Assembly (NCBI GenBank): GCA_965655095.1
Contig: OZ296650.1
Coordinates: 19,468,001 to 19,532,000 of the forward strand
DNA: 64,000 nucleotides
Reading direction: 5' to 3'
From: Haplodiscus bocki
Lineage: Eukaryota
Positions 1-59,309 of this stretch are shown here, one piece after another (positions within the stretch are counted from its first letter, which is position 1; every line of letters begins with the position of its first letter). The translations under genes and the position numbers were made by a program. Below the pieces are notes generated by a model. The model ran no database searches. It saw only the letters and a program-made list of their open reading frames with translations, and was not told the DNA's origin.

Positions 1-3000
1 ACAGGCATTTCAGGGACTGTTCCGACAACCAAAAGCGTCTGTTGCACCGCAAAGGTTTATCGTTACACCTATTTTGATTATCGCGGTAAATTCAGCGAAG
101 TTTTTTTACCACCGTTGAACTGTTGAAAAAGTTCTCAACAGCAGGGATAAGTTAGCATGAGTCAAGACGAATGGAATCACGCTTATCAGGTGCTGAAACG
201 CTTTGTTAGCAGAAACCTTGGAGATTACAATGACATATACTTAGAACAGACACCCTGTCACTAGCTTGCGTGGTGGAGGAGTTCCCTAATGTGTGTTATG
301 AGACCTTAAGTCAGTGAAGTGCTTACTCAACTTTAGAAGTCCCAATGATCACAATTGTTTTATATACTGCTTTATCGCTGCATGGCTTTCAAAATATGGT
401 CCATCGCTGCAGCCACCTGGTCAAGATATGCATCGGTTGAAAACAAACCCGAGCACGTACTCCCCGTCTAACCCGCTGGCTCATCAACCAAAAGGTGAAT
501 TTGAAATGCCGATGGGAATTTGACAAATGTCAAGATTTGAAGAAATGAATCCCTACAAAATCAACGCTGTGAAATGTGGATAGAAGGAACTGGTACCCAT
601 TCGTGTCAGCAAGAAATACGATACTGACTTTTACGTTGACTTATTCCTATTGGAGGATGGTCTAACTCATCACTATGCGCTCATAACAAACCTAAAAAAT
701 CTAATCTGCTGCGTAAATGATCGAACTCTGCCATCGGAAGATTGTCTCTGCCGAAACTGCTTTCATTCATGTTCTTCAAAAGAATTATACGAGCGACACT
801 TTGTGAGCCGTTTCAACAATGAACCTGCCTTGATTCAGATGCCAAAGCCAGAGTAAAACAAAATGAACGTCACAAACTTTCAAGCTCGATGGTTCGCTCC
901 ATTAGTTATTAACTTCGACTTGTAATCCTTCTATCAAACGGTTTCCCGTTGTTTACAGGATGGTGAAAAAGCCACTACCATTGAAATTTACAAAGCTTGT
1001 GGGTTTTCCTTAGTGGGGGTTGAGCATGGTAATGCTACACCACTTTTAATTCATGATGAAAACTCAGAAATCTCTCCAACTACGACCTACACCATTTATG
1101 CAAAAATCTTCATCGATTCGGGGCAGAAAGCAAAATGGAAATTATTTCTTCAACAGACGAGAAATAGATAAGCTTGTCAGTATGCGTACCATTGCAAACG
1201 CACTAGGAAAAGAACGGCCTAGTAAAGACTGTATTTGAATTTCTGAGGTTTGTTGAGTCCCTGCGAATCATGTCATCATCACCCGACAAATTGGTTACCT
1301 TTCTTCCAGAAGACAACTTCTCATACCTGCACAGGCATTTCAGGGACTGTTCCGACAACCAAAAGCGTCTGTTGCACCGCAAAGGTTTATCGTTACACCT
1401 ATTTTGATTATCGCGGTAAATTCAGCGAAGTTTTTTTACCACCGTTGAACTGTTGAAAAAGTTCTCAACAGCAGGGATAAGTTAGCATGAGTCAAGACGA
1501 ATGGAATCACGCTTATCAGGTGCTGAAACGCTTTGTTAGCAGAAACCTTGGAGATTACAATGACATATACTTAGAACAGACACCCTGTCACTAGCTTGCG
1601 TGGTGGAGGAGTTCCCTAATGTGTGTTATGAGACCTTAAGTCAGTGAAGTGCTTACTCAACTTTAGAAGTCCCAATGATCACAATTGTTTTATATACTGC
1701 TTTATCGCTGCATGGCTTTCAAAATATGGTCCATCGCTGCAGCCACCTGGTCAAGATATGCATCGGTTGAAAACAAACCCGAGCACGTACTCCCCGTCTA
1801 ACCCGCTGGCTCATCAACCAAAAGGTGAATTTGAAATGCCGATGGGAATTTGACAAATGTCAAGATTTGAAGAAATGAATCCCTACAAAATCAACGCTGT
1901 GAAATGTGGATAGAAGGAACTGGTACCCATTCGTGTCAGCAAGAAATACGATACTGACTTTTACGTTGACTTATTCCTATTGGAGGATGGTCTAACTCAT
2001 CACTATGCGCTCATAACAAACCTAAAAAATCTAATCTGCTGCGTAAATGATCGAACTCTGCCATCGGAAGATTGTCTCTGCCGAAACTGCTTTCATTCAT
2101 GTTCTTCAAAAGAATTATACGAGCGACACTTTGTGAGCCGTTTCAACAATGAACCTGCCTTGATTCAGATGCCAAAGCCAGAGTAAAACAAAATGAACGT
2201 CACAAACTTTCAAGCTCGATGGTTCGCTCCATTAGTTATTAACTTCGACTTGTAATCCTTCTATCAAACGGTTTCCCGTTGTTTACAGGATGGTGAAAAA
2301 GCCACTACCATTGAAATTTACAAAGCTTGTGGGTTTTCCTTAGTGGGGGTTGAGCATGGTAACGCTACACCAGTTTTAATTCATGATGAAAGGTCAGAAA
2401 TCTCTCCAACTACGACCTACACCATTTGTGCAAAAATCTTCTTCGAATCGGGGCAGAAAGCAAAATGGAAATTATTTCTTCAACAGACGAGAAATAGATA
2501 AGCTTGTCAGCAGGCGTACCAATGCAAACGCACTAGGAAAAGAACGACTTAATAAAGACTGTATTTGGTTTTCTGAGGTTTGTTGAGTCCCTGCGAATCA
2601 TGTCATCATCACCCGACAAATTGGTTACCTTTCTTCCAGAAAACAACTTCTCATACCTGCACAGACATTTCAGGGACTGTTCTGACGACCAAAAGCGTTT
2701 ATTGCACCGCAAAGGTTTCTATCTTTACACCTGTTTTGATGATCATGGTAAATTCATGGAAAATTTTTTACCACCGTTGAACTGTTGAAAAAATTCTTAA
2801 CAGCAGGGATAAGTAAGCGTGAGTCAAGACAAATGGAATCACGCTTATCAGGTGTTCAAAAGCTTCATTAGCAAAAACCTTGGAGAGTACAATGACACAT
2901 ACTTAGAACAGACACTCTGTCACTAGCTTGCGTGGTGGAGGAGTTCCCTAATGTGTGTTATGAGACCTTAAGTCAGTGAAGTGCTTACTCGACTTTAGAA

Positions 3001-6000
3001 GTCCCAATGATCACAATTGTTTTATATACTGCTTTATCGCTGCATGGCTTTCAAAATATGGTCCATCGCTGCAGCCACCTGGTCAAGATATGCATCGGTT
3101 GAAAACAAACCCGAGCACGTACTCCCCCTCTAACCCGCTGGCTCATCAACCAAAAGGTTAATTTGAAATGCCGATGGGAATTTGACAAATGTCAAGATTG
3201 AAAGAAACGAATCCCTACAAATCAACGCTTTGGAATATGGAAAGAAGGAACTGGTACCCATTCGTGTCAGCAAGAAATACGATACAGACTTTGACGTTGA
3301 CTTATTCTTATTGGAGGATGGTCTAGCTCATCACTATGTGCTCAGAACAAACCTAACAAATCTAATCTGAACCTAACAAATCTAATCTGCCGCGTAAATG
3401 ATCGAACTCTGCCATCGGAAGATTGTCTCTGCCGAAACTGCTTTCATTCATGTTCTTCAAAGGAAATATACGAGTGACACATTGTGAGCTGTTTCAACAA
3501 TGAACCTGCATTGATACAGATGCCAAAGCCAGAGGAAAACAAAATGAACGTCACAAACTTTCAAGCTCGATGGTTCGCTCCATTAGTTATTTACTTCGAC
3601 TTGTAATCCTTCTATCAAGCGGTTTCCCGTTGTTTACAGGGTGGTGAAAAAGCCACTACCAGTGAAATACACAAAGCTTGTGGGTTTTCTTTAGTGGGGG
3701 TTGAGCATGGTAATGCTACACCACTTTTAATTCATGATGAAAACTCAGAAATCTCTCCAACTACGACCTACACCATTTGTGCAAAAATCTTCATCGAATC
3801 GGGGCAGAAAGCAAAATGGAAATTATTTCTTCAACAGACGAGAAATAGATAAGCTTGTCAGCAGGCGTACCAATGCAAACGCACTAGGAAAAGAACGACT
3901 TAATAAAGACTGTATTTGGTTTTCTGAGGTTTGTTGAGTCCCTGCGAATCATGTCATCATCACCCGACAAATTGGTTACCTTTCTTCCAGAAAACAACTT
4001 CTCATACCTGCACAGACATTTCAGGGACTGTTCTGACGACCAAAAGCGTTTATTGCACCGCAAAGGTTTCTATCTTTACACCTGTTTTGATGATCATGGT
4101 AAATTCATGGAAAATTTTTTACCACCGTTGAACTGTTGAAAAAATTCTTAACAGCAGGGATAAGTAAGCGTGAGTCAAGACAAATGGAATCACGCTTATC
4201 AGGTGTTCAAAAGCTTCATTAGCAAAAACCTTGGAGAGTACAATGACACATACTTAGAACAGACACTCTGTCACTAGCTTGCGTGGTGGAGGAGTTCCCT
4301 AATGTGTGTTATGAGACCTTAAGTCAGTGAAGTGCTTACTCGACTTTAGAAGTCCCAATGATCACAATTGTTTTATATACTGCTTTATCGCTGCATGGCT
4401 TTCAAAATATGGTCCATCGCTGCAGCCACCTGGTCAAGATATGCATCGGTTGAAAACAAACCCGAGCACGTACTCCCCCTCTAACCCGCTGGCTCATCAA
4501 CCAAAAGGTTAATTTGAAATGCCGATGGGAATTTGACAAATGTCAAGATTGAAAGAAACGAATCCCTACAAATCAACGCTTTGGAATATGGAAAGAAGGA
4601 ACTGGTACCCATTCGTGTCAGCAAGAAATACGATACTGACTTTGACGTTCACTTATTCTTATTGGAAGATGGTCTAACTCATCACTATGTGCTCATAACA
4701 AACCTAAAAAATCCAATCTGCCGCGTAATTGATCGAACTCTTCCATCGGAAGATTTTCTCTGCCGAAACTGCTTTCATTCATGTTCTTCAAAGGAAATAT
4801 ACGAGTGACACATTGTGAGCTGTTTCAACAATGAACCTGCATTGATACAGATGCCAAAGCCAGAGGAAAACAAAATGAACGTCACAAACTTTCAAGCTCG
4901 ATGGTTCGCTCCATTAGTTATTTACTTCGACTTGTAATCCTTCTATCAAGCGGTTTCCCGTTGTTTACAGGGTGGTGAAAAAGCCACTACCAGTGAAATA
5001 CACAAAGCTTGTGGGTTTTCTTTAGTGGGGGTTGAGCATGGTAATGCTACACCACTTTTAATTCATGATGAAAACTCAGAAATCTCTCCAACTACGACCT
5101 ACACCATTTGTGCAAAAATCTTCATCGAATCGGGGCAGAAAGCAAAATGGAAATTATTTCTTCAACAGACGAGAAATAGATAAGCTTGTCAGCAGGCGTA
5201 CCAATGCAAACGCACTAGGAAAAGAACGGCCTAATAAAGACTGTATTTGAATTTCTGAGGTTTGTTGAGTCCCTGCGAATCATGTCATCATCACCCGACA
5301 AATTGGTTACCTTTCTTCCAGAAGACAACTTCTCATACCTGCACAGCCATTTCAGGGACTCTTCCGACAACCAAAAGCGTCTGTTGCACCGCAAAGGTTT
5401 ATATCGTTACACCTATTTTGATTATCGCGGTAAATTCAGCGAATTTTTTTTACCACCGTTGAACTGTTGAAAAAGTTCTCAACAGCAGGGATAAGTTAGC
5501 ATGAGTCAAGACGAATGGAATCACGCTTATCAGGTGCTGAAACGATTTGTTAGCAGAAACCTTGGAGATTACAATGACATATACTTAGAACAGACACTCT
5601 GTCAGTAGCTTGCGTGGTGGAGGAGTTCCCTAATGTGTGTTATGAGACCTTAAGTCAGTGAAGTGCTTGCTCAACTTTAGAAGTCCCAATGATCACAATT
5701 GTTATATATACTGCTTTATCGCTGCATGGCTTTCAAAGTATGGTCCGTCGCTGCAGCCACCTGGTCAAGATATGCGTCGGCGGAAAATAAACCCGAGCAC
5801 GTACTCCCCTCTAACCCGCTGGCTCATCAACCAAATTGTGAATTTGAAATGCCGATGGGAATTTGACAGATGTCGAGATTTGAAGAAATGAATCCCTACA
5901 AAATCAACGCTTTGGAATATGGAAAGAAGGAACTGGTACCCATTCGTGTGAGCAAGAAATACGATACTGAATTTGACGTTAACTTATGCTTATTGGAGGA

Positions 6001-9000
6001 TGGTCTAACTCATCACTATGCGCTCATAACAAACCTAAAAAATCTAATCTGCTGCGTAAATGATCGAACTCTGCCATCGGAAGATTGTCTCTGCCGAAAT
6101 TGCTTTCATTTATGTCCTTCGAAGGAAATATACGAGCGACAAATTGTGATCTGTTTCAACAATGAACCTGCATTGATACAGATGCCAAAGCCAGAGGAAG
6201 ACAAAATGAACGTCACAAACTTTCCAGCTCGATGGTTCGCTCCATTAGTTATTTACTTCGACTTGTAATCCTTCTATCAAACGGTTTCCCGTTGTTTACA
6301 AGATGGTGAAAAAGCCACTACCATTGAAATACACAAAGCTTGTGGGTTTTCCTTTGTGGGGGTTGAGCATGGTAACGCTACACCAGTTTTAATTCAAGAT
6401 GAAAGGTCAGAAATCTCTCCAACTACGACCTACACCATTTGTGCAGAAATCGTCATCGAATCGGGGCAGAAAGCAAAATGGAATTTATTCCTTCAACAGA
6501 CGCGAAATTAAGCTTGTCAGCAGGCGTACCAATGCAAACGCACTAGGAAAAGAACGGCTTAATAAAAACTGTATTTGAATTCCTGAGGTTTGTTGAGTCC
6601 CTGCGAATCATGTCATCATCACCGACAAATTGGTTACCTTTCTTCCAGAAGACAACTTCTCATACCTGCACAGCCATTTCAGGGACTGTTCCGACAACCA
6701 AAAGCGTCTGTTGCACCGCAAAGGTTTCTATCCTTACACCTATTTTGATTATCGCGGTAAATTCAGCGAAGCTTTTTTCACCACCGTTGAACTGTTGAAA
6801 AAATTCTCAACAGCAGGGATAAGTAAGCATGAGTCAAGACGAATGGAATAACGCTTATCAGGTGTTGAAAAGCTTTGTTAGCAAAAACCTTGGAGATTAC
6901 AATGACATATACTTAGAACAGACACTCTGTCAGTAGCTTGCGTGGTGGAGGAGTTCCCTAATGTGTGTTATGAGACCTTAAGTCAGTGAAGTGCTTACTC
7001 AACTTTAGAAGTCCCAATGATCACAATTGTTTTTTATACTGCTTTATCGCTGCATGGCTTTCAAAATATGGTCCATCGCTGCAGCCACCTGGTCAAGATA
7101 TGCGTGGGCGGAAAACAAACCCGAGCACGTACTCCCCTCTAACCCGCTGGCTCATCAACCAAAATGTGAATTTGAAATTCCGATGGGAATTTGACAGATG
7201 TCGAGATTTGAAGAAATGAATCCCTACAAAATCAACGCTTTGGAATATGGATAGAAGGAACTAGTACCCATTCGTGTCAGCAAGAAATACGATACTGACT
7301 TTGACGTTGACTTATTCCTATTGGAGGATGGTCTAACTCATCACTATGCGCTCATAACAAACCTAAAAATCTAATCTGCTGCGTAAATGATCGAACTCTG
7401 CCATCGGAAGATTGTATCTGCCGAAATTGCTTTCATTTATGTTCTTCAAAGGAAATATACGAGCGACACATTGTGAGCTGTTTCGACAATGAACCTGCCC
7501 TGATTCAGATGCCAAAGCCAGAGTAAAACAAAATGAACGTCACAAACTTTCAAGCTCGATGGTTCGCTCCATTAGTTTAATTACTTCGACTTGTAATCCT
7601 TCTATCAAACGATTTCCCGTTGTTTACAGGATGGTGAAAAAGCCACCACCGTTGAAATACACAAAGCTTGTGGGTTTTCCTTAGTGGGGGTTGAGCATGG
7701 TAACGCTACACCCAGTTTTAATTCAAGATGAAAGGTCAGAAATCTCTCCAACTACGACCTATACCATTTGTGCAAAAATCTTCATCGATTCGGGGCAGGA
7801 AGCAAAATGGAAATTATTCCTTCAACAGACGAGAAATAGATAAGCTTGTCAGCAGGCGTACGAATGCAAACGCACTAGGAAAAGAACGGCTTAATGAAGA
7901 CTGTATTTGAATTTCTGAGGTTTGTTGAGTCCCTGCGAATCATGTCATCATCACCCGACAAAATGGTTACCTTTCTTCCAGAAGACAACTTCTCATACCT
8001 GCACAGCCATTTCAGGGACTGTTCCGACAACCAAAAGCGTCTGTTGCACCGCAAAGGTTTCTATCGTTACACCTATTTTGATTATCGAGGTAAATTCAGC
8101 GAAATTTTTTACCACCATTGAACTGTTGAAAAAATTCCCAACAGCAGGGATAAGTAGGCATGAGTCAAGACGAATGGAATCACGCTTATCAGGTGTTGAA
8201 AAGCTTTGTTAGCAGAAACCTTGGAGATTACAATGACATATACTTAGAACAGACACTCTGTCAGTAGCTTGCGTGGTGGAGGAGTTCCCTAATGTGCGTT
8301 ATGAGACCTCAAGTCACTGAATTGCTTACTCAACTTTAGAAGTCCCAATGATCACAATTGTTTTATATACTGCTTTATCGCTGCATGGCTTTCAAAATAT
8401 GGTCCATCGCTGCAGCCACCTGGTCAAGATATGCGTCGGCGGAAAACAAACCCGAGCACGTACTCCCCTCTAACCCGCTGGCTCATCAACCAAAATGTGA
8501 ATTTGAAAAGCCGATGGGAATTTGACAGATGTCGAGATTTGAAGAAATGAATCCCTACAAAATCAACGCTTTGGAATATGGAAAGAAGGAACTGGTACCC
8601 ATTCGTGTGAGCAAGAAATACGATACTGATTTTGACGTTGACTTATGCTTATTGGAGGATGGTCTAACTCATCACTATGCGCTCATAACAAATCTAAAAA
8701 ATCTAATCTGCTGCGTAAATGATCGAACTCTGCCATCGGAAGATTGTCTCTGCCGAAATTGCTTTCATTTATGTTCTTCGAAGGAAATATACGAGCGACA
8801 CATCCTGAGCTGTTTCAACAATGAACCTGCATTGATACATATGCCAAAGCCAGAGGAAAACAAAATGAACGTCACAAACGTTCAAGCTCGATGGCTCGCT
8901 CCATTAGTTATTTATTTCGACTTGTAATCCCTGTCTCAAACGGTTTCCCGTTGTTTACAGGAAGGTGAAAAAGCCACCACCATTGAAATACGCAAAGCTT

Positions 9001-12000
9001 GTGGGTTTTGCTTAGTGTGGGTTGAGCATGGTAAAGCTACACCAGTTTTAATTCAAGATGAAAGGTCAGAAATCTTTCCAACTACGACCTACACCATTTG
9101 TGCAAAAATCTTCATCGATTCGGGGCAGAAAGCAAAATGGAAATTTTTCCTTCAACAGACGAGAATTAGATAAGCTTGTCAGCAAGCGTACCAATGCAAA
9201 CGCACTAGGAAAAGAACGGCTTAATAAAGACTGCATTTGAATTTCTGAGGTTTGTTGAGTCCCTGCGAATCATGTCATCATCACCCGACAAAGTGGTTAC
9301 CTTTCTTCCAGAAGACAACTTCTCATACCTGCACAGCCATTTCAGGGACTGTTCCGACAACCAAAAGCGTCTGTTGCACCGCAAAGGTTTCTATTGTTAC
9401 ACCTATTTTGATGATCATGGTAAATTCATGGAAAATTTTTTACAACCGTTGAACTGTTGAAAAAATTCTCAACAGCAGGGATAAGTAAGCATGAGTCAAG
9501 ACGAATGGAATCACGCTTATCAGGTGTTGAAAAGCTTTGTTAGCAGAAACCTTGGAGATTACAATGACATATACTTAGAACAGACACTCTGTCAGTAGCT
9601 TGCGTGGTGGAGGAGTTCCCTAATGTGCGTTATGAGACCTCAAGTCACTGAATTGCTTACTCAACTTTAGAAGTCCCAATGATCACAATTGTTTTATATA
9701 CTGCTTTATCGCTGCATGGCTTTCAAAATATGGTCCATCGCTGCAGCCACCTGGTCAAGATATGCGTCGGCGGAAAACAAACCCGAGCACGTACTCCCCT
9801 CTAACCCGCTGGCTCATCAACCAAAATGTGAATTTGAAAAGCCGATGGGAATTTGACAGATGTCGAGATTTGAAGAAATGAATCCCTACAAAATCAACGC
9901 TTTGGAATATGGAAAGAAGGAACTGGTACCCATTCGTGTGAGCAAGAAATACGATACTGATTTTGACGTTGACTTATGCTTATTGGAGGATGGTCTAACT
10001 CATCACTATGCGCTCATAACAAATCTAAAAAATCTAATCTGCTGCGTAAATGATCGAACTCTGCCATCGGAAGATTGTCTCTGCCGAAATTGCTTTCATT
10101 TATGTTCTTCGAAGGAAATATACGAGCGACACATCCTGAGCTGTTTCAACAATGAACCTGCATTGATACATATGCCAAAGCCAGAGGAAAACAAAATGAA
10201 CGTCACAAACGTTCAAGCTCGATGGCTCGCTCCATTAGTTATTTATTTCGACTTGTAATCCCTGTCTCAAACGGTTTCCCGTTGTTTACAGGAAGGTGAA
10301 AAAGCCACCACCATTGAAATACGCAAAGCTTGTGGGTTTTGCTTAGTGTGGGTTGAGCATGGTAAAGCTACACCAGTTTTAATTCAAGATGAAAGGTCAG
10401 AAATCTTTCCAACTACGACCTACACCATTTGTGCAAAAATCTTCATCGATTCGGGGCAGAAAGCAAAATGGAAATTTTTCCTTCAACAGACGAGAATTAG
10501 ATAAGCTTGTCAGCAAGCGTACCAATGCAAACGCACTAGGAAAAGAACGGCTTAATAAAGACTGTATTTGAATTTCTGAGGTTTGTTGAGTCCCTGCGAA
10601 TCATGTCATCATCACCCGACAAATTGGTTACCTTTTTTCCAGAAGACAACTTCTCATACTTGCACAGCCATTTCAGGGACTGTTCCGACAACCAAAAGCG
10701 TCTTTTGCACCGCAAAGGTTTATATCCTTACACCTATTTTGATTATCGCGGTAAATTCAGCGAAGTTTTTTTACCACCGTTGAACTGTTGAAAAAATTCT
10801 CAACAGCAGGGATAAGTTAGCATGAGTCAAGACGAATGGATTCACGCTTATCAGGTGTTGAAAAGCTTTGTTAGCAGAAACCTTGGAGATTACAATGACA
10901 TATACTTAGAACAGACACTCTGTCACTAGCTTGCGTGGTGGAGGAGTTCCCTAATGTGTGTTATGAGACCTTAAGTCAGTGAAGTGCCTACTCAACTTTA
11001 GAAGTCCCAATGATCACAATTGTTTTTTTATACTGCTTTATCGCTGCATGGCTTTCGAAATAAGGTCCATCGCTGCAGCCACCTGGTCAAGATATGCGTC
11101 GGCGGAAAACAAACCCGAGGACGTACTCCCCTCTAACCCGCTGGCTCATCAACCAAAATGTGAATTTGAAATGCCGATGGGAATTTGACAGATGTCGAGA
11201 TTTGAAGAAATGAATCCCTACAAAATCAACGCTTTGGAATATGGATAGAAGGAACTGGTACCCATTCGTGTCAGCAAGAAATACGATACTGACTTTGACG
11301 TTGACTTATTCCTATTGGAGGATGGTCTAACTCATCACTATGCGCTCATAACAAACCTAAAAAATCTAATCTGCTGCGTAAATGATCGAACTCTGCCATC
11401 GGAAGATTGTATCTGCCGAAATTGCTTTCATTTATGTTCTTCGAAGGAAATATACGAGCGACACATTGTGAGCTGTTTCAACAATGAACCTGCATTGATA
11501 CAGATGCCAAAGCCAGAGGAAAACAAAATGAACGTCACAAATTTTCAAGCTCGATGGTTCGCTCCATTAGTTTAATTACTTCGACTTGTAATCCTTCTAT
11601 CAAACGATTTCCCGTTGTTTACAGGATGGTGAAAAAGCCACCACCGTTGAAATACACAAAGCCTGTGGGTTTTCCTTAGTGGGGGTTGAGCATCGTAACG
11701 CTACACCCAGTTTTAATTCAAGATGAATGGTCAGAAATCTCTCCAACTACGACTTACACCATTTGTGCAAAAATCTTCATCGATTCGGGGCAGAAAGCAA
11801 AATGGAAATTATTCCTTCAACAGACGAGAAATAGATAAGCTTGTCAGCAGGCGTACCAATGCAAACGCACTAGGAAAAGAACGGCTTAATAAAGACTGTA
11901 TTTGAATTTCTGAGGTTTGTTGAGTCCCTGCGAATCATGTCATCATCACCCGACAAATTGGTTACCTTTCTTCCAGAAGACAACTTCTCATACATGCACA

Positions 12001-41800: not shown

Positions 41801-44800
41801 TGCGAAGTTTGCATTCGGAAATTAGTTGTGGCCTTGAAAGGAATTGCGCAAGATGTGCATGGTCAAAAGCATTCTCACAAGTATTTCAACGATTTTATTC
41901 CTGAAACACCCCAGTCCTCTCGAAAGTGCTGGATGTGCGACGGCTTCTTTGTTGAAGAAAGTCAAGTATATAAAATGGTAGACCATTGTCACTACGGTGG
42001 GGAATTCCTCGGCTATGCACACAACGATTGCAATCTCAAAAGAACAACGCTCAACTTCATTCCAATGTTAGCACATAATCTCTCCAACTACGACCTACAC
42101 CGTTTGTTCAAAAAACTTCATCGATTCGGGGCAGAATGGAAAATGGAATTTATTTCATCAACAGACGAGAAATACATCAATTTGTCAGCTGTCGTACCCA
42201 AGTGAACGTACTAGGACAAGAACGGCGTAAAAAATACTGTGTTTGATTATCTGAGGTTTGTTGAGTCCCTGCGAATCATGTCATCATCACCCGACAAATT
42301 GGTTACCTTTCTTCCAGAAGACAACTTCTCATAACTGCACAGCCATTTCAGGAACTGTTCTGACGACTAAAAGCGTCTATTCCACCGCAAAGGTGTCTAT
42401 CCTTACACCTATTTTGATGATCGTGGTAAATTCAGGAAAAATTTTTTACCACCGTTGAACTGTTGAAAAAATTCTCAACAGCAGGGATAAGTAAGCATGA
42501 GTCAAGACGAATGGAATCACGCTAATGAGGTGTTTAGTTGTTTTGATCGCAAAAACCTCGGAGATTACCACGAGCTATTCTTAGAACAGACACTCTGTTA
42601 CTAGCATGCGTGGTGGAGGAGTTCCCTAAAATGTGTTGAGACCTTAAATCATTGAACTGCGCACTCAACATTAGCAGTCCCAATGATCACAATTGTTTTA
42701 GATACTGCTTTTTCCGTGCATGGCATTCAAAGTCAGGTGCATTGCTGCAGCCACGTGGTCAAGATTTGCGTCGGTTGAAAACAAACCCCGGCACGAATTC
42801 CGCCTCTAATACACTGGCTCATCAATCAAAAAGTGAATTTGAAATGCCGATGGGATTTTCACAGATGTCAAGAGTTGAAGAATTGAATCTCAAAATCAAC
42901 TTTTTGGATTTTGGCAACAAGGAACTGGTACCCAATCGTGTCAGTAAGAAATGCTATACTGACTTTGACGTTGACTTTTTCTTATTGGAGGATGGTCTAA
43001 CTCATCAATATGTGCTCTTAACCAACCTAAAAAACCTAATCTGCCGCGTAAATGGTTGAACTCTGTCATCGAGAGGTTGCCTCTGCCGAAACTGCTTGCA
43101 TACATGTTCTTGAAAGGAATTATACCGGCGACACATTGTGAGCTGTTTCAACAATGAACCTGCATTGTTACTGATGGCGAAGCCAGGGAAAAACAATAGG
43201 TCACAAGGATTCAAGCTCGATGGTTCGCTCCAATAGTTCTTTACTTCCACTTGTAATACCTCATTCAGCCGGTTTCCGAATGTTTACAGCATGGTGAAAA
43301 AGCCACTACCATTGAATTACACAGAGCTGGTAGGTTTTGCTTAGAGGGGCTTGAGCATGGTAACCGTACACCAGCGTTGATTCAAGTTGAAAGGTGCGAA
43401 GTTTGCATTCGGAAATTAGTTGTGGCCTTGAAAGGAATTGCGCAAGATGTGCATGGTCAAAAGCATTCTCACAAGTATTTCAACGATTTTATTCCTGAAA
43501 CACCCCAGTCCTCTCGAAAGTGCTGGATGTGCGACGGCTTCTTTGTTGAAGAAAGTCAAGTATATAAAATGGTAGACCATTGTCACTACGGTGGGGAATT
43601 CCTCGGCTATGCACACAACGATTGCAATCTCAAAAGAACAACGCTCAACTTCATTCCAATGTTAGCACATAATCTCTCCAACTACGACCTACACCGTTTG
43701 TTCAAAAAACTTCATCGATTCGGGGCAGAATGGAAAATGGAATTTATTCCATCAACAGACGAGAAATACATCAATTTGTCAGCTGTCGTACCCAAGTGAA
43801 CGTACTAGGACAAGAACGGCGTAAAAAATACTGTGTTTGATTATCTGAGGTTTGTTGAGTCCCTGCGAATCATGTCATCATCACCCGACAAATTGGTTAC
43901 CTTTCTTCCAGAAGACAACTTCTCATAACTGCACAGCCATTTCAGGGACTGTTCTGACGACCAAAAGCGTCTATTCCACCGCAAAGGTGTCTATCCTTAC
44001 ACCTATTTTGATGATCGTGGTAAATTCAGGAAAAAATTTTTACCACCGTTGAACTGTTGAAAAAATTCTCAACAGCAGGGATAAGTAAGCATTAGTCAAG
44101 ACGAATGGAATCACGCTAATGAGGTGTTTAGTTGTTTTGATCGCAAAAACCTCGGAGATTACCACGAGCTATTCTTAGAACAGACACTCTGTTACTAGCA
44201 TGCGTGGTGAAGGAGTTCCCTAAAATGTGTTGAGACCTTAAATCATTGAACTGCGCACTCAACATTAGCAGTCCCAATGATCACAATTGTTTTAGATACT
44301 GCTTTATCCGTGCATGGCATTCAAAGTCAGGTGCATTGCTGCAGCCACGTGGTCAAGATTTGCGTCGGTTGAAAACAAACCCCGGCACGAATTCCGCCTC
44401 TAATACACTGGCTCATCAATCAAAAAGTGAATTTGAAATGCCGATGGGATTTTCACAGATGTCAAAGGTTGAAGAATTGAATCTCAAAATCAACTTTTTG
44501 GATTTTGGCAACAAGGAACTGGTACCCAATCGTGTCAGTAAGAAATGCTATACTGACTTTGACGTTGACTTTTTCTTATTGGAGGATGGTCTAACTCATC
44601 ATTATGTGCTCTTAACCAACCTAAAAAACCTAATCTGCCGCGTAAATGGTTGAACTCTGTCATCGAGAGATTGTCTCTGCCGAAACTGCTTGCATACATG
44701 TTCTTGAAAGGAATTATACCGGCGACACATTGTGAGCTGTTTCAACAATGAACCTGCATTGTTACTGATGGCGAAGCCAGGGAAAAACAATAGGTCACAA

Positions 44801-46207
44801 GGATTCAAGCTCGATGGTTCGCTCCAATAGTTCTTTACTTCCACTTGTAATACCTTCTTCAGCCGGTTTCCGAATGTTTACAGCATGGTGAAAAAGCCAC
44901 TACCATTGAATTACACAGAGCTGGTGGGTTTTGCTTAGAGGGGCTTGGGCATGGTAACCGTACACCAGTGTTGATTCAAGTTGAAAGGTCCGAAGTTTGC
45001 ATGCGGAAATTAGTTGTGGCCTTGAAAGGAATTGCGCAAGATGTTCATGGTCAAAAGCATTCTCACAAGTATTGCAACGATTTTATTCCTGAAACACCCC
45101 AGTCCTCTCGAAAGTGCTGGATGTGCGACGGCTTTTTTGCTGAAGAAAGTCAAATATATAAAATGGTAGACCATTGTCACTACGGTGGGGAATTCCTCGG
45201 CTATGCACACAACGATTGCCATCTCAAAAGAAGAACGCTCAACTTCATTCCAATGTTAGCACATAATTTCTCCAACTACGACCTACACCTTTTGTTCAAA
45301 AAACTTCGGGGCAGAATGGAAAATGGAAGTTATTCCAACAACAGACGAGAAATACATCAATTTGTCAGCTGTCGTACCCAAGTGAACGTACTAGGACAAG
45401 AACGGCGTAAAAAATACTGTGTTTGATTATCTGAGGTTTGTTGAGTCCCTGCGAATCATGTCATCATCACCCGACAAATTGGTTACCTTTCTTCCAGAAG
45501 ACAACTTCTCATAACTGCACAGCCATTTCAGGAACTGTTCTGACGACTGAAAGCGTCTATTCCACCGCAAAGGTGTCTAGTATTACACCTATTTTGATGA
45601 TCGTGGTAAATTCAGGGAAATTTTTTAACCACCGTTGAACTGTTGAAAAAATTCTCAACAGCAGAGATAAGTAAGCATGAGTCAAGACGAATGGAATCAC
45701 GCTTATCAGGTGTTCAAAAGCATTGTTAGCAAAAACCTTGGTGATTACGATGACATATACTTGGAACAGACACTCTGTCACTAGCTTGCAAGGTGGAGGA
45801 GTTCCCTAATGTGTGTTATGAGACCTTAAGTCAGTGAAGTGCTTACGCAACTTTAGAAGTCCCAATGATCACAATTGTTTTATATACTGCTTTATCGCTG
45901 CATGGCTTTCAAAATTTGGTCCATCGCTGCAGCCACCTGGTCAAGATATGCGTCGGCGGAAAACAAACCCGAGCACGTACTCACCTCTAACCCGCTGGCT
46001 CATCAACCAAAATGTGAATTTGAAATGCCGATTGGATTTTGACAGTTGTCGAGATTTGAAGAAATGAATCCCTACAAAATCAACGCTTTGGAATATGGAA
46101 AGAAGTAACTGGTACCCATTCGTGTCAGCAAGAAATGCAATACTGACATTGACGTTGACTTTTCCTTATTGGAGGATGGTCTAACTCATCACTATGGGCT
46201 CATAAAC

Positions 46208-49200
46208 AACCTAAAAAACTTAATCTGCCGCGTAAATGGTTGAACTCTGTCATCGAGAGATTGTCTCTACCGAAATTGCTTTCACATATGTTCTTCAAAG
46301 GAGTAATAGGAGCGACACATTGTGGGGTGTTTCAACAATGAACCTGCATTGTTACAGATGCCAAGGCCACGGAAAAACAAAATCAAGGTCACAAAGATTC
46401 AATCTCGATGGTTCGCTCCAATAGTTCTTTACTGCCACTTGTAATACCTCATTCAACCGGTTTCCGATTGTTTACAGGATGGTGAAAAAGCCACTACCAT
46501 TGAATTACACAGAGCTGGTGGGTTTTGCTTGAGGGGCTTGAGAATGGTAACCGTACACCAGTGTTAATTCAAGTTGAAAGGTCCGAAGTTTGCATGCGGA
46601 ATTTAGTTGTGGCATTGAAAGGAATTGCGCAAGATGTGCATGGTCAAAAGCCTTCTCACAAGTATTTCAACGGTTTTATTCCTGAAAAACCCCAGACCTT
46701 TCGAAGGTGCTGGATGCGCGACGGCTTCTTTGTTGAAGAAAGTCAAGTAGATAAAGTGCTAGACCATTGTCACTACGGTGGGGAATTCCTCGGCTCTGCA
46801 CACAACGAATGCAATCTCAAAAGAAAAACGCTCAACTTCATTCCAATGTTAGCACATAATCTCTCCAACTACGACCTACACCTTTTGTTCAAAAAACTTC
46901 GGGGCAGAATGGAAAATGGAAGTTATTCCATCAACAGACGAGAAATACATCAATTTGTCAGCAGTCGTACCCAAGTGAACATACTAGGACAAGAACGGCG
47001 TAAAAAATACTGTGTTTGATTATCTGAGGTTTGTTGAGTCCCTGCGAATCATGTCATCATCACCCGACAAATTGGTTACCTTTCTTCCAGAAGACAACTT
47101 CTCATAACTGCACAGCCATTTCAGGAACTGTTCTGACGACCAAAGGCGTCTATTGCACCGCAAAGGTGTCTATCCTTACACCTGTTTTGATGATCGTGGT
47201 AAATTCAGGGAAAATTTTTTACCAACGTTGAACTGTTGAAAAAATTCTCAACAGCAGGGATAAGTAAGCATGAGTCAAGACGAATGGAATCACGCTTATC
47301 AGGTGTTCAAAAGCATTGTTAGCAAAAACCTTGGTGATTACGATGACATATACTTGGAGCAGACACTCTGTTACTAGCTTGCAAGGTGGAGGAGTTCCCT
47401 AATATGTGTTATGAGACCTTAAGTCAGTGAAGTGCTTACTCAACTTTAGAAGTCCCAATGATCACAATTGTTTTATATACTGCTTTATCGCTGCATGGCT
47501 TTCAAAATTTGGTCCATCGCTGCAGCCACCTGGTCATGATATGCGTCGGCGGAAAACAAACCCGAGCACGTACTCACCTCTAACCCGCTGGCTCATCAAC
47601 CAAAATGTGAATTTGAAATGCCGATGGGAATTTGACAGTTGTCGAGATTTGAAGAAATGAATCCCTACAAAATCAACGCTTTGGATTATGGGAAGAAATA
47701 ACTGGTACCCATTCGTGTCAGCAAGAAATGCAATACTGACATTGACGTTGACTTTTCCTTATTGGAGGATGGTCTAACTCATCACTATGGGCTCATAAAC
47801 AACCTAAAAAACTTAATCTGCCGCGTAAATGGTTGAACTCTGTCATCGACAGAATGTCTCTGCCGAAACTGCTTTCATATTTGTTCTTCAAAGGAATTAT
47901 ACGAGCGACACATTGTGAGCTGTTTCAACAATGAACCTGCCTTGATACAGATGTCAAAGCGGGAGGAAAACAATATGAAGGTCACAAACGTTCAAGCTCG
48001 ATGGTTCGCTCCAATAGTTATTTACTTTGACTTATAGTCCCTCATTCAATCGGTTTTCGGTTGTTTACAGGATGGTGAAAAAGTCACTACCATTGAAATA
48101 CACAAAGCTTTTGGGTTTTGCTTAGTGGGGGTTGAGCATGGTAATCCTACACCAGTTTTAAATCAAGTTGAAAGGTCAGAAGATTGCATGCGGAAATTAG
48201 TTGTGGCATTGAAAAGAATTGCGCAAGATGTGCATGGTCAAAAGCATTGCCACAAGTATTTCAACGATTTTATTCCTGAAAGACCCCAGACCTCTCGAAA
48301 GTGGTGGATATGCGACGGCTTCTTTGTTGAGGAAAATCAATAAGATAAAGTGCTAGACCGTTGCCACTACAGTGGGGAATTCCTCGGCAATGCACACAAC
48401 AATTGCCATCTCAAAAGAGGAACGCTCAACTTCATTCCAATGTTAGCACATAATCTCTCCAACTACGACCTACACCGTTTGTTCAAAAAACTTGATCGAT
48501 TCGGGGCAGAATGGAAAATGGAATTTATTTCATCAACAGACGAGAAATACATCAATTTGTCAGCTGTCGTACCCAAGTGAACGTACTAGGACAAGAACGG
48601 CGTAAAAAATACTGTGTTTGATTATCTGAGGTTTGTTGAGTCCCTGCGAATCATGTCATCATCACCCGACAAATTGGTTACCTTTCTTCCAGAAGACAAC
48701 TTCTCATAACTGCACAGCCATTTCAGGAACTGTTCTGACGACTAAAAGCGTCTATTCCACCGCAAAGGTGTCTATCCTTACACCTATTTTGATGATCGTG
48801 GTAAATTCAGGAAAAATTTTTTACCACCGTTGAACTGTTGAAAAAATTCTCAACAGCAGGGATAAGTAAGCATGAGTCAAGACGAATGGAATCACGCTAA
48901 TGAGGTGTTTAGTAGTTTTGATCGCAAAAACATTGAAGATTACCCAGAGCTATTCTTAGAACAGACACTCTGTTGCTAGCATGCGTGGTGGAGGATTTCC
49001 CTAAAATGTGTTACGAGACCTTAAATCATTGAACTGCGCACTCAACATTAGCAGTCCCAATGATCACAATTGTTTTAGATACTGCTTTATCCGTGCATGG
49101 CATTCAAAGTATGGTCCATTGCTGCAGCCACCTGGTCAAGATATGCGTCGGTTAAAAACAAACCCGGGCACGAATTCCGCCTCTAATCCGCTGGCTCATC

Positions 49201-52200
49201 AACCAAAAAGTGAATTTGAAATGCCGATTGGAATTTCACAGATGTCAAGAGTTGAAGAATTGAATCTCAAAATCAACTTTTTGGATTATGGCAACAAGAA
49301 ACTGGTACCCAATCGTGTTAGTAAGAAATGCTATACTGACTTGGACGTTGACTTTTCTTATTGGAAGATGGTCTAATTCATCACTATGTGCTCATAACCA
49401 ACCTAAAAAACTTAATCTGCCGCGTAAATGGTTGAACTCTGTCATCGAGAGATTGTCTCTACCGAAATTGCTTTCACATATGTTCTTCAAAGGAGTAATA
49501 GGAGCGACACATTGTGGGGTGTTTCAACAATGAACCTGCATTGTTACAGATGCCAAGGCCACGGAAAAACAAAATCAAGGTCACAAAGATTCAATCTCGA
49601 TGGTTCGCTCCAATAGTTCTTTACTGCCACTTGTAATACCTCATTCAACCGGTTTCCGATTGTTTACAGGATGGTGAAAAAGCCACTACCATTGAATTAC
49701 ACAGAGCTGGTGGGTTTTGCTTGAGGGGCTTGAGAATGGTAACCGTACACCAGTGTTAATTCAAGTTGAAAGGTCCGAAGTTTGCATGCGGAATTTAGTT
49801 GTGGCATTGAAAGGAATTGCGCAAGATGTGCATGGTCAAAAGCCTTCTCACAAGTATTTCAACGGTTTTATTCCTGAAAAACCCCAGACCTTTCGAAGGT
49901 GCTGGATGCGCGACGGCTTCTTTGTTGAAGAAAGTCAAGTAGATAAAGTGCTAGACCATTGTCACTACGGTGGGGAATTCCTCGGCTCTGCACACAACGA
50001 ATGCAATCTCAAAAGAAAAACGCTCAACTTCATTCCAATGTTAGCACATAATCTCTCCAACTACGACCTACACCTTTTGTTCAAAAAACTTCGGGGCAGA
50101 ATGGAAAATGGAAGTTATTCCATCAACAGACGAGAAATACATCAATTTGTCAGCAGTCGTACCCAAGTGAACATACTAGGACAAGAACGGCGTAAAAAAT
50201 ACTGTGTTTGATTATCTGAGGTTTGTTGAGTCCCTGCGAATCATGTCATCATCACCCGACAAATTGGTTACCTTTCTTCCAGAAGACAACTTCTCATAAC
50301 TGCACAGCCATTTCAGGAACTGTTCTGACGACCAAAGGCGTCTATTGCACCGCAAAGGTGTCTATCCTTACACCTGTTTTGATGATCGTGGTAAATTCAG
50401 GGAAAATTTTTTACCAACGTTGAACTGTTGAAAAAATTCTCAACAGCAGGGATAAGTAAGCATGAGTCAAGACGAATGGAATCACGCTTATCAGGTGTTC
50501 AAAAGCATTGTTAGCAAAAACCTTGGTGATTACGATGACATATACTTGGAGCAGACACTCTGTTACTAGCTTGCAAGGTGGAGGAGTTCCCTAATATGTG
50601 TTATGAGACCTTAAGTCAGTGAAGTGCTTACTCAACTTTAGAAGTCCCAATGATCACAATTGTTTTATATACTGCTTTATCGCTGCATGGCTTTCAAAAT
50701 TTGGTCCATCGCTGCAGCCACCTGGTCATGATATGCGTCGGCGGAAAACAAACCCGAGCACGTACTCACCTCTAACCCGCTGGCTCATCAACCAAAATGT
50801 GAATTTGAAATGCCGATGGGAATTTGACAGTTGTCGAGATTTGAAGAAATGAATCCCTACAAAATCAACGCTTTGGATTATGGGAAGAAATAACTGGTAC
50901 CCATTCGTGTCAGCAAGAAATGCAATACTGACATTGACGTTGACTTTTCCTTATTGGAGGATGGTCTAACTCATCACTATGGGCTCATAAACAACCTAAA
51001 AAACTTAATCTGCCGCGTAAATGGTTGAACTCTGTCATCGACAGAATGTCTCTGCCGAAACTGCTTTCATATTTGTTCTTCAAAGGAATTATACGAGCGA
51101 CACATTGTGAGCTGTTTCAACAATGAACCTGCCTTGATACAGATGTCAAAGCGGGAGGAAAACAATATGAAGGTCACAAACGTTCAAGCTCGATGGTTCG
51201 CTCCAATAGTTATTTACTTTGACTTATAGTCCCTCATTCAATCGGTTTTCGGTTGTTTACAGGATGGTGAAAAAGTCACTACCATTGAAATACACAAAGC
51301 TTTTGGGTTTTGCTTAGTGGGGGTTGAGCATGGTAATCCTACACCAGTTTTAAATCAAGTTGAAAGGTCAGAAGATTGCATGCGGAAATTAGTTGTGGCA
51401 TTGAAAAGAATTGCGCAAGATGTGCATGGTCAAAAGCATTGCCACAAGTATTTCAACGATTTTATTCCTGAAAGACCCCAGACCTCTCGAAAGTGGTGGA
51501 TATGCGACGGCTTCTTTGTTGAGGAAAATCAATAAGATAAAGTGCTAGACCGTTGCCACTACAGTGGGGAATTCCTCGGCAATGCACACAACAATTGCCA
51601 TCTCAAAAGAGGAACGCTCAACTTCATTCCAATGTTAGCACATAATCTCTCCAACTACGACCTACACCGTTTGTTCAAAAAACTTGATCGATTCGGGGCA
51701 GAATGGAAAATGGAATTTATTTCATCAACAGACGAGAAATACATCAATTTGTCAGCTGTCGTACCCAAGTGAACGTACTAGGACAAGAACGGCGTAAAAA
51801 ATACTGTGTTTGATTATCTGAGGTTTGTTGAGTCCCTGCGAATCATGTCATCATCACCCGACAAATTGGTTACCTTTCTTCCAGAAGACAACTTCTCATA
51901 ACTGCACAGCCATTTCAGGAACTGTTCTGACGACTAAAAGCGTCTATTCCACCGCAAAGGTGTCTATCCTTACACCTATTTTGATGATCGTGGTAAATTC
52001 AGGAAAAATTTTTTACCACCGTTGAACTGTTGAAAAAATTCTCAACAGCAGGGATAAGTAAGCATGAGTCAAGACGAATGGAATCACGCTAATGAGGTGT
52101 TTAGTAGTTTTGATCGCAAAAACATTGAAGATTACCCAGAGCTATTCTTAGAACAGACACTCTGTTGCTAGCATGCGTGGTGGAGGATTTCCCTAAAATG

Positions 52201-52591
52201 TGTTACGAGACCTTAAATCATTGAACTGCGCACTCAACATTAGCAGTCCCAATGATCACAATTGTTTTAGATACTGCTTTATCCGTGCATGGCATTCAAA
52301 GTATGGTCCATTGCTGCAGCCACCTGGTCAAGATATGCGTCGGTTAAAAACAAACCCGGGCACGAATTCCGCCTCTAATCCGCTGGCTCATCAACCAAAA
52401 AGTGAATTTGAAATGCCGATTGGAATTTCACAGATGTCAAGAGTTGAAGAATTGAATCTCAAAATCAACTTTTTGGATTATGGCAACAAGAAACTGGTAC
52501 CCAATCGTGTTAGTAAGAAATGCTATACTGACTTGGACGTTGACTTTTCTTATTGGAAGATGGTCTAATTCATCACTATGTGCTCATAACC
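46208..52591 (+). repeat. Two-unit (3192-bp) higher-order tandem duplication
   Basis: Identical ORFs at offset 3192: 46236/49428, 46525/49717, 47031/50223, 47427/50619, 48125/51317, 48350/51542, 48633/51825, 49008/52200. The ends are approximate. Confidence 0.9.
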
Positions 52592-55500
52592 AACCTAAAA
52601 AAAACTTAATCTGCCGCGTAAATATTTGAACTCTGTCATCGAGAGATTGTCTCTACCGAAACTGCTTTCATACATGTTCTTCAAAGGAATTATACCGGCG
52701 ACACATTGTGAGCTGTTTCAACAATGAACCGGCCTCGATACAGATGCCAAAGCCGGAGGAAAACAATATGAAGGTCACAAATATTCAGGCTCGATGGTTC
52801 GCTCCAATAGTTATTTACTTCTATTCATAGTCCCTCATTCAACCGGTTTTCGGTTGTTTACAGGATGGTGAAAAAGCCACTACCATTGAAATACACAAAG
52901 CTTTTGGGTTTCGCTTAGTGGGGGTTGAGCATGGTAATCCTACACCAGTTTTAAATCAAGTTGAAAGGTCAGAAGATTGCATGCGGAAATTAGTTGTGGC
53001 ATTGAAAAGAATTGCGCAAGATGTGCATGGTCAAAAGCATTCCCACAAATATTTCAACGTTTTTGTTCCTGAAAGACCCCAGACCTCTCGAAAGTGCTGG
53101 ATATGCGACGGCTTCTTTGTTGAGGAAAATCATTAAGATAAAAAGCTAGACCATTGCCACTACAGGGGAATTCCTCGGCAATGCACACAACAAATGCAAT
53201 CTCAAAAGAAGAACGCTCTACTTCATTCCAATGATAGCAAATAATCTCTCCAACTACGACCTACACCATTTGTTCACAAAACTTCATCGGCTCGGGGCAG
53301 AATGCAAAATGGAAGATATTCCGTCAATAGACGGGACTTACATCAATTTGTCAGCAGGCGTACCATTGTAAACGTACTAGGACAAGAACGGCAAAACAAA
53401 GGTTTTATTCGAATATCTGAGGTTTGTTGAGTCCCTACGATTCATGCCGTCATCACTCCACAAATTGGTTACCTTTCTTCAGTAGACAACTTCTCATACC
53501 TGCACAGCCATTTCACGGACTATGCTGACGACCAAAAGCGTCTATTGCACCGCAAAGGTGTCTATCCTTACACCTATTATGATGATCCTGCTAAATTCAT
53601 GGAAAAATTCTTACCACCGTTGCACTGTTGAAAAAATTACCAACAGCAGGGAGAATTTAGCATGAGTCAAGGCGATTGAAATCACGCTAATGAGGTTTTT
53701 AAAAGCTTTGATTGCAAAAACCTTGGAGATAACCATGACCTATACTTAAAGCAGACACTCCTACTGGCATGCTTCGTGGAGCAGTTCGCTAAAGTGTGTT
53801 ATGAGACCTACAAACTTGACAGTCTCCATGATCTAACTTAATGTCACTTGTCTGTTGATGCATTTCTTCGCACCTGTGAAGCAGATCTTCACTTTTTAAC
53901 AGATAGACGTTATTTGGAGAATGTTAAAAATATGATAGATAGAGGCGTAGCATCGGTTTCGGAGAAACGTTTCTTGACGGCAAAGAATAACAATTTGATT
54001 GACTTCAATCACGGCAGAGATGAAACTTACGGAGTTTTGGTCATGCCAATAATCTTTACGTTGGAGTCACGGGAAATTTCTTCTACCGCTGAAAGGTTTT
54101 TGAACAATCTGCCGAATAGATCTGCAAGAGATATTGGACGCACCAACTGATTTTGAACTTGGTTTTATTTTGGAAGTGGATCTCCATTATCCAGACGAGC
54201 TACATGACGACCATAGAGACTTTCCACATGCACCTACTAAAGAAACAATATCTTATAAAGATCTTGTTTTCTGGCAACATGACCTGCTAGAAGGAGAAGG
54301 TGTTCTTCGATGTCAAAGCCAGCCGAAGAAACTCATACAAACCTTGTCGGATAAAAATAGTTATACTGTACACTATATCGCCCTGAAGCTCTATGTAAGC
54401 TTGGGCTGGCAAATTATGAAATTACACAGAGTCCTCTTGTGTCAGGAACCGTGGTTGAAGCCTTACATTCAACTGAATACAGAGAAACAATAGTAAAAAA
54501 AAAAATTTGAACAGAGCTTCTATAAGATGATGAATAACAGTTGCTACGGGAAAACATTGGAAAGCAAACGAAGTGGGGTCAACATGCGGTTGGTGTGTTC
54601 CGAAAATAAAGGTAGAGAACGTACAATTTCTCATTTATTCTGCGCTTTCAAACTTTTTGACGAAAACTTGACTACAATTACTTCCAAGAAAAGAAATATT
54701 TTATGGAACAAACCAACGATTGTGGGCGCGACTATCCTCGATTTTGCGATTGCGAAGTGTCATATGTAGGACTTCCATTACAATTTTATGAAATCGAAAT
54801 TCAACTGTCGATTGCTATACTCGGACACGGATTCTCTTCTATACGAAGTTAAAGGGAGACTTCTAACAAGAACTGAATAAAAATCCTGCGCTCAAGCAAC
54901 ATTTCGCTTTATCAAATGATCCTCAGAACCATGAGTTGTATAGTTCGGATCAAAAATTGGTCACTCCAAGTTCAAAGATGAGTTCGCAGGCTGTCCAACA
55001 AATGAGTTCATTGGAATAAAACCGAAGATGTATTCTATTCTCTGTGGTGGTAAACTGAAACTTTTGGAGAAAGGAGTCACATGCTTTGCTCAAGGTAGTC
55101 TCAAACAGGAACTCTACCTCGAAGTATTGCTCACAGGAGACTCATTCTCCACAATGAACACACGCATTGGTTCTAAAAACCATCATTTGCGAACGATATT
55201 CACGAAGAAGCTGTCCCGCAGTGCTTTGGATCACAAAATGTTCGTATTGGAAGACGATATTACATGTCTTTCTCTTGCACATCAATCGATCAGAGATATG
55301 GCAGTATTTAGAGAAATATTAGAAGAGGACGGATGGGGTGAAGATTTTTCATCATCTAGTCCAACATGGAGCTATATGGAGAACGAGAGATGTGTGTCTG
55401 GGGCAGACTCTCCAAGCACTCGAACTCAAAACAGTGTGCAAGCAAACGCATTAGACCCGATAACAAATTGGACACCACCCGATCACGGATTGAACCAAAG

Positions 55501-55808
55501 AGTATTTTCTGAAGAACTGAAAGAAAACTTTGCAAACTCGGACTCAGAAGGTTAAGAGCTACAGTCTCCACGAAACCCTTTGACTGATGATGAAGCGGAA
55601 AAAGAAACCGTGGAAGATGATAGAGAAAGTGTCGGAAGTGGTCATTCAAGCGACATTCAAGTCATTACAGTATCATCAGAAGATGACAGGAACTTGCTAT
55701 CCGATTCGTTAAGATATATTGACTTTAACAACTTTAACTACTGAAGACGAATCATACAGACCGAAGAAAAAAGCAAAGCTGAATGACTTGGAGAAAGATA
55801 GCGAATGA
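52214..55808 (+). pseudogene. polB: Parental protein-primed family B DNA polymerase (Polinton/Maverick/adintovirus type), with stops and frameshifts, 5' part missing here
   Basis: Motifs appear in order: DHNCF, HHY, CRNCF..H..C, ExoI region (VIYFDL in most array copies), degenerate DHCH..G..AH..CN, ExoII (NLSNYDLH), RFVESLRFM, KGVYPYTY, CYETYKLD (to ~53820), motif A remnant (D)ANNLY (~54045), GFILEVDLHYP, WLKPYIQLNT, motif B KMMNNSCYGKT (~54524-54556), KPTIVG..ILD, motif C YSDTDS (54818-54835), KFKDE, PKMYS, KGV, SALDHKM. An acidic tail ends RPKKKAK...SE* at 55808. Confidence 0.93.
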
Positions 55809-58922: not shown

Positions 58923-59145
58923 ATTTTTCCGAAATCTGGATGATTTCTCAAATTCTCTACTGTCTGGGAAATTGAGTGTCGCCTGACTGAAACTTCACTT
59001 CTCTGAAAACCAATGACTTTGAGAATAACATCTATAACCGGCTATTTCAAGACATCTTCAAAGCGAAAAACGTGCCACTTTAAGACTCATTTCAAATCTT
59101 GCGGAGAATCAGAATACAGAGAACAAAAATTTAACGTCTAAAAAT

Positions 59146-59300: not shown

Positions 59301-59309
59301 GGCTCAGTT

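Follow-up and report, generated by a model that had tools for sequence, protein, structure and literature searches.

A single-locus macrosatellite within the polymerase gene of a degenerate Polinton, with both halves of the parent gene retained

Introduction

Satellites with similarity to Polintons are already known. In Crassostrea gigas, CgiSat52 has a 1656-bp monomer carrying a DNA/Polinton label and is found on one chromosome, with 17 monomers in one assembly and 6 in another (PMC8268682). The array described here resembles it in having a Polinton-type monomer of ~1.6 kb on one chromosome only. The tabulated data for CgiSat52 do not state the part of the Polinton involved or whether the parent flanks it (PMC8268682), whereas here 84 units are present and both gene halves have been mapped. 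Likewise, LmiSat34-299 of Locusta migratoria is homologous to Polinton coding sequence (PMC4935994); its monomer is 299 bp and comes from short reads, in contrast to the ~1.6-kb unit here, and its main description gives no gene or flanks (PMC4935994). The supplements of both papers may give this information.

Other satellites have been traced to transposon ORFs, including PROsat, Pvc20 (LINE-1 ORF2), HinfI (CR1), and a gag-derived satellite of rye, and a review concludes that any part of a mobile element can seed a satellite (PMC9659126). These ORF-derived satellites share with the present array the tandem amplification of a coding piece of a mobile element (PMC9659126), although the main text of that review makes no mention of Polintons or Mavericks, and in the present case neither side of the birth site has been lost. 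In Lathyrus sativus, retrotransposon-derived satellites are similar in that the arrays have grown from sequence within the parent element; there the start was in short tandem repeats of dispersed elements, whereas here it was unique coding sequence at one locus (PMC7004042).

Polintons/Mavericks and adintoviruses are recognized by terminal inverted repeat (TIR) ends of the (AGT)2 type, a polymerase of OTU, exonuclease, and palm regions with an inserted nuclease, an ATPase, a double jelly-roll capsid protein, and a protease, and the Polinton copies in vertebrate genomes are mostly degraded (PMC8097293, PMC8502044, PMC10748475, PMC11071308). AGTAGT ends and a 6-bp target-site duplication are hallmarks of Polintons (PMC8097293). 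The element investigated here differs from a typical Polinton in being without integrase and target-site duplication and in having been stretched by the array to 138.5 kb.

A literature search, mostly without subscription papers, turned up no report of an array that lies within the polymerase gene of a Polinton and retains both edges. The event is nevertheless less special than first thought, because Polinton-like satellites had been catalogued before and because the genome is rich in unrelated arrays of kilobase units; what appears to be new is the description of both parental edges. Satellite origins are usually guessed from leftover transposon similarity. In the present case, the sequence that started the array survives, as do its two breakpoints, eight outgroups with a single copy, and a pair of internal clocks, and the order of events can be read, from integration through first duplication and a deletion variant to higher-order repeats, which makes models of array birth testable. 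Little is added to what is known about Polintons, and the wider lead is the host genome, in which arrays of kilobase units make up about 8% of the sample.

The reading favoured here, with a probability of roughly 0.8, is that this is a single-locus macrosatellite derived from the middle 1.6 kb of a dead Polinton's polymerase gene, which probably began, not long after integration, as a single tandem duplication guided by microhomology and probably reached 84 copies by unequal exchange between copies, with no function shown.

Results and Discussion

Extent and composition of the array

The window is the whole 64,000-bp stretch that was analysed (G000:C3:19468001-19532000), in a genome of 1.5 Gb, and periods of 1331 and 1593 bp dominate it. 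Its units were found by mapping the last unit onto the window. The sequence-only reading had counted 37 complete head-to-tail units on one strand, and unit mapping bears this out, placing them at window 307-53809, with a partial unit at window 1-306. It had put the size of the array at more than 53 kb, which holds as a minimum: when 200 kb of leftward sequence was added, the array was found to extend 69.7 kb beyond the left window edge. In total there are 84 units over 123,514 bp (C3:19398296-19521809), all head-to-tail and at a single locus, in two length classes, 44 long (~1.6 kb) and 40 short (~1.33 kb). A genome search with the unit joint returned 85 candidates; the 40 that were scored all map to the array, which has 83 joints, and none of these 40 places the joint elsewhere in the genome.

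Units 1-47 (28 long, 19 short) lie at C3:19398296-19468306, to the left of the window apart from the tail of unit 47, which forms the partial unit on the plus strand at window 1-306. These are followed on the plus strand by units 48-68 (window 307-28281), all 21 of which are short (~1331 bp) and without a 270-bp Endo VII-like segment, and by units 69-84 (window 28282-53809), 16 long units (~1596 bp) with an OTU-like domain and an exonuclease with the Endo VII-like insertion, equivalent to residues 286-813 of the polymerase probe described below. The deletion of 269-271 bp occupies identical columns in all 40 short units, and the short units cluster together in the unit tree. In the units at window 307-28281 the lost segment corresponds almost exactly to the Endo VII-like insertion, and the long unit begins close to where the OTU-like domain starts and stops where the exonuclease ends. 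This match of the deletion and of the unit limits to domain limits is probably a coincidence.

The parent polymerase gene

A natural polymerase ORF from a younger Polinton family of the same genome was used as ruler and probe. It contains DNA_pol_B_2 (E 1.6e-12, 47.5 bits, a weak Pfam score) and C2H2 fingers, and a weak Endo VII match at residues 574-610 that is below cut-off in this ORF and above cut-off in two of the 10 database relatives scanned. By tblastn, probe residues 22-276 map to the left of the array, 286-813 to the unit, and the remainder to the right. This collinear match across both edges identifies the gene as a protein-primed family B polymerase, the origin that had been proposed from the letters alone, and the unit is likewise collinear with the single-copy polymerase genes of eight sister elements.

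The 5′ part of the gene is at C3:19397544-19398295, immediately left of the array, where a single HSP crosses the array edge. Its presence had been predicted, and on checking it does run into unit 1. On the right, the last unit continues into the palm at window 53810, as first described, with GAGACCT followed by ACAAACTTGAC only at window 53803-53820. The 3′ part, from the palm onward, occupies window 53810-55808 on the plus strand and contains stops and frameshifts; the tblastn match reaches 55618, DNA_pol_B_2 scores E 3e-4 at window 54074-54781, which is below the Pfam cut-off, and the sisters align rightward of the array to about window 56000. The source gene had been expected at one edge of the array; it is preserved, but at both.

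Pfam gave no match for 10 raw ORF fragments from the window, and relatives were needed for identification. A structure model of the part of the probe equivalent to the unit (pLDDT 89.5) matches the phi29 exonuclease over residues 201-539 (Z 14.9, rmsd 3.0, 175 aligned) and Otu2 over residues 3-132 (Z 7.6, rmsd 3.7, 100 aligned), the latter at rank 49, in the expected place with a middling score. The model also matches polymerases of the adintovirus/bidnavirus type (E 1e-22 to 4e-13). No Endo VII fold is among its best 50 structure matches, and a Foldseek comparison with the PDB gave no match at E<=0.001. The unit is accordingly modelled as an OTU-like domain plus an exonuclease with a nuclease insertion, after which the palm follows. 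A TP-vOTU-EXO-PALM layout and inserted nucleases have been reported for Polinton polymerases (PMC11071308, PMC10748475). An OTU domain ahead of the polymerase is a mark of adintoviruses (Starrett et al.), of which the Alpha class has a PolB close to the pfam03175 type and the Beta class one that is <30% identical; the 47.5-bit Pfam score of the probe PolB is no more than a hint at the Beta class.

The host element

A whole Polinton frame encloses the array, supporting the earlier proposal of birth in place inside a viral-type polB. The array has stretched the element from about 17 kb to 138.5 kb, with termini at C3:19388743 and 19527275. To the left of the array are a broken ATPase gene (C3:19391859-19392598) and broken protease-like, major capsid, core-like, and minor-capsid-like genes (C3:19393455-19396140, by tblastn against younger-family ORFs). 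The broken genes match the younger-family ORFs at 38-83% by tblastn and are in the same order as in the sisters. The minor-capsid, core, and protease labels are assumed from motifs; Pfam gave no match for the protease, core, or minor capsid homologues, and for the ATPase gave Pox_A32 below cut-off. The major capsid remnant matches a younger-family ORF at 44-83% (tblastn), and a model of the younger-family capsid matches those of Sputnik (E 1.7e-11), iridovirus, and mavirus, which identifies it as a double jelly-roll protein.

The integrase was lost through a deletion of ~1.1 kb at about C3:19393455, left of the array, and all that remains is a weak match to residues 1-22. An rve integrase is present at the same place in most sisters, and the rve domain of the probe scores E 7.5e-9. 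Because the integrase is deleted here but present in most sisters, the family is Polinton and the array-bearing copy a defective derivative. By its genes and termini, the host of the array is thus classed as a dead, integrated, degenerate Polinton.

The left TIR is at C3:19388743-19388909 and the right TIR at window 59126-59275 on the minus strand, with its terminus at 59275. The pair differs at 21 of 150 bases (14%) and has a degenerate AGT end; four sisters start with AGTAGT, and the sister on C10 has a perfect 6-bp target-site duplication. In the array-bearing copy, the 1.65 kb of host flank outside the left TIR (C3:19387095-19388742) recurs in inverted orientation outside the right TIR (window 59276-60932, minus strand), in place of a target-site duplication, which has therefore been lost. 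Together, flank and TIR form a 1.8-kb inverted repeat bracketing the element (window 59126-60932 and C3:19387095-19388909), 1.65 kb of which is host DNA. Its arms are 95.6% identical over 1825 columns, with two mismatches in the central ~1.2 kb and 5-11% mismatches at the edges, a pattern suggesting that gene conversion has recently acted between the arms over a distance of 140 kb. The inverted repeat was rejected as a true TIR, and its 4.4% divergence as an age clock, because only its innermost ~170 bp recur in the sisters and its central part has been homogenized recently.

The outer 280 bp of the inverted flank are a high-copy repeat, and the host-flank repeat presumably contains a decayed LINE reverse transcriptase, judging by its motifs. 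Contig depth on the inverted repeat is 1.6-2.5x that of the flank in three of four short-read runs and mixed in the fourth. Two stop-free stretches lie nearby. One of 201 aa (window 58197-58802, minus strand) is inside the element between the polymerase and the right TIR and has no Pfam or sister match, and one of 192 aa with an acidic tail (window 63256-63834, plus strand) is outside the element and has no Pfam match.

Sister elements and the younger family

Searching the genome with the unit and the 3′ part of the gene revealed dispersed relatives. Nine close sisters align around the array at about 65-80%. The unit segment is present in eight of these, in single copy in each, and several sisters are continuous across both edges. 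All eight contain stops. Units are 18-29% distant from the sisters and the gene flanks 17-29%; since the two are about equally far, no faster mutation rate in the array is needed. The younger family has long open frames and a 27-bp minisatellite 3′ of the polymerase gene (C6:2151001-2165000, with like copies on C4, C7, C9, and C12), and the named homologues of its capsid protein, 58% identical, belong to an acoel worm, which is no more than a hint at the host group. Between the younger families and the unit, similarity is confined to short patches of about 70%.

Birth joint and mode of growth

The two edges share a microhomology of seven out of eight bases in register, a score reached by 9 of 2999 control offsets for an eight-base window that was picked after the edges had been seen. 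The edge letters are conserved at both sites in most sisters. On the left the cut follows the second base of a codon and on the right the first, and the joint is therefore out of frame. A clean crossover in the microhomology would leave letters that are seen in none of the 83 internal joints; nearly all of them deviate from this form at two shared positions, which means that the joint was either altered at birth or homogenized afterwards. The internal joints are best read as having one shared origin, yet not as a perfect product of microhomology. At the left array edge there is a deletion of ~26 bp relative to the sisters.

In a tree with the eight sisters, the 84 units make up a single clade with a support of 0.976, a stem of 0.056, and a mean depth of 0.099; as the units are mosaics, the tree depth, and hence the dating, is rough. 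Four-gamete violations climb from 0.28 to 0.64 with distance (261 sites). Exact recent duplications are present at lags of one, two, and three units, and divergence grows with distance, being 5.7-6.9% between units one or two apart and 10.7% between units 24 apart. The single clade, mosaic units, and lag-dependent divergence are those of concerted evolution by unequal exchange.

Stop-bearing columns common to 90% of the units are rare (1 of 47), and a single 1-base gap is common likewise. TIR divergence is 14%, against a maximal unit divergence of 16%, on a TIR clock of 150 bases only, which conversion could slow. Because few stops or gaps are common to the units and the TIRs differ so much, most decay followed the first duplication, which was probably early, soon after integration.

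In the proposed course of events, the end of the exonuclease region would have become linked, through a break or template switch at the two seven-of-eight-base sites, with the start of the OTU-like region, giving two copies and breaking the frame. Unequal crossing-over and conversion would then have raised the copy number by one to three units at a time, and one copy would have lost 270 bp, its descendants now being the 40 short units. The driver may have been a general tendency of the host to grow arrays, with no enzyme of the Polinton involved.

Coding status of the units

In macrosatellites such as D4Z4/DUX4 and RS447/USP17 each unit has an intact, selected ORF. Here there are 2-13 in-frame stops per unit, and the longest stop-free stretch is 81-247 aa. 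Variants among the units comprise 850 non-synonymous and 263 synonymous changes over 492 codon columns, with an N/S ratio against the neutral expectation of 1.00. On the stem the same analysis gives 0.48 (38 versus 24), which also verifies the frame and is as expected if part of the stem predates integration. Stop variants number 45, somewhat fewer than neutrality would give (ratio 0.76). With an N/S of 1.00, the units drift neutrally as protein. A coding macrosatellite or polyprotein is ruled out by the stops, the N/S of 1.00, and the out-of-frame joint.

Decay driven by methylation or editing was also considered and rejected, with 0.80 alleles per column in CpG columns versus 0.90 in other C/G columns and a spectrum without strong bias. 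CpG observed/expected is 0.8 in the array versus 1.0 in sampled windows.

Alternative explanations

The same microhomology that may have guided a tandem duplication could also have closed a circle. An initial burst is therefore conceivable, in which a circle, cut out at the microhomology, underwent rolling-circle synthesis by host machinery or by the strand-displacing polymerase of the Polinton and was reinserted in place, unequal exchange having merely reshuffled the copies later. Internal tandem copies on the kilobase scale in three of 23 other Polintons, one of the three having been selected for double matches, are in keeping with such a burst. The unit, however, has no terminal repeat or origin, the growth that is visible is stepwise (mosaics and duplications of one to three units), such arrays are about as frequent in non-Polinton DNA, and the joint was not found at other loci among the scored candidates. 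A burst of this kind is unlikely, and tandem duplication followed by unequal exchange is preferred. Repeat arrays can serve as sources of small RNA, and an array this old and large, in a genome with younger Polinton copies that have long open frames, might have been maintained as such a source or as a chromatin block silencing related Polintons. This is less probable still, given that the younger families match the unit only in the short patches noted above, that all eight close sisters already bear stops, and that unrelated arrays show like behaviour.

An assembly artefact, whether it concerns the entire array or the greater part of it, is the least probable of these explanations. Two long exact repeats, of 5243 bp at lag 4792 and of 3204 bp at lag 3192, could be erroneous duplicates, but they amount to about five of the 84 units, and the others differ by up to 16% in a nested pattern. 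Over all pairs, unit divergence is 10.2% on average and 16.3% at most, and only three of 3486 pairs are identical; with divergence this high and so few identical pairs, neither chance nor a collapsed assembly would yield the array. There is no N in the 264 kb covering the window and its left extension. The array is spanned by no read set, and none of the contigs of four short-read runs covers the whole of it; unit variants are nevertheless present in these contigs, and in all four runs contigs cross the joint from the last unit to the palm without difference. The four runs come from one study and at most two samples, possibly the assembly's own source, and consist of contigs, in which depth is not usable as copy number.

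Other kilobase-unit arrays in the genome

Tandem arrays with units of 0.3-5 kb were found in six of 40 sampled 10-kb windows, covering 33,487 of 399,600 bases (about 8%); the 40 windows were hand-chosen at round coordinates on contigs C1-C12 and are not a random sample. Against this genome baseline, amplification specific to Polintons is unsupported. Four large arrays are unrelated to the polymerase array. Their units measure 1.39 kb in a neighbouring array, 1.68 kb in a 102-kb array on C5, 1.67 kb in one of at least 90 kb on C2, and 1.69 kb in one of about 20 kb on C3. None of these matches the polymerase unit, and two are pieces of dispersed elements. Smaller arrays have units of 0.5-2.3 kb. 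Pfam matched none of 27 frames from the units of the other arrays, the post-polymerase region, and the inverted flank.

Five unrelated arrays thus have units of 1.39, 1.60, 1.67, 1.68, and 1.69 kb, and variants of 1.33 kb have been gained independently in two of them; these five cases are the whole basis for a clustering at 1.4-1.7 kb among large arrays. It is a tentative and somewhat doubtful proposal that a general process in this genome makes single-locus arrays, up to at least 100 kb, from 1.4-1.7-kb pieces of any resident mobile DNA, of which the polymerase array would be a dated member, its birth being recorded by both edges, the outgroups, a codon clock, and a TIR clock. If so, the genome would be a natural experiment on how satellites start and on the selection of unit length.

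The 1.39-kb-unit array is in two blocks of ~37 and ~29 kb (C3:19534480-19571289 and C3:19597715-19626997) and begins 5.5 kb to the right of the inverted flank. Near it are a 0.94-kb array and duplications of 8.9 and 6.6 kb. The C2 array has 1.67-kb units throughout the 90 kb of C2:79960001-80050000, with 73% identity to a single dispersed copy on C8. On C5, an array of 102 kb (C5:117649185-117751035) with at least 58 units of 1.68 kb abuts a sister Polinton. It was considered as a second array of the polymerase type and rejected, as its unit is mostly from a dispersed element with long inverted repeats (~1.6 kb), together with ~90 bp of the sister's minisatellite; on the left side of the array, the end of the dispersed element is still attached.

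Tandem copies are also present inside other Polintons, namely 4179 bp in ~2.7 copies over the 5′ half of the polymerase gene (C6:25385021-25396491, 98.8%), 1023 bp in six copies over the start of the integrase gene (C5:17784507-17790643, 99%), and 968 bp in two copies (C8:26043953-26045887, 100%). It is possible that such young copies are early stages of the same process.
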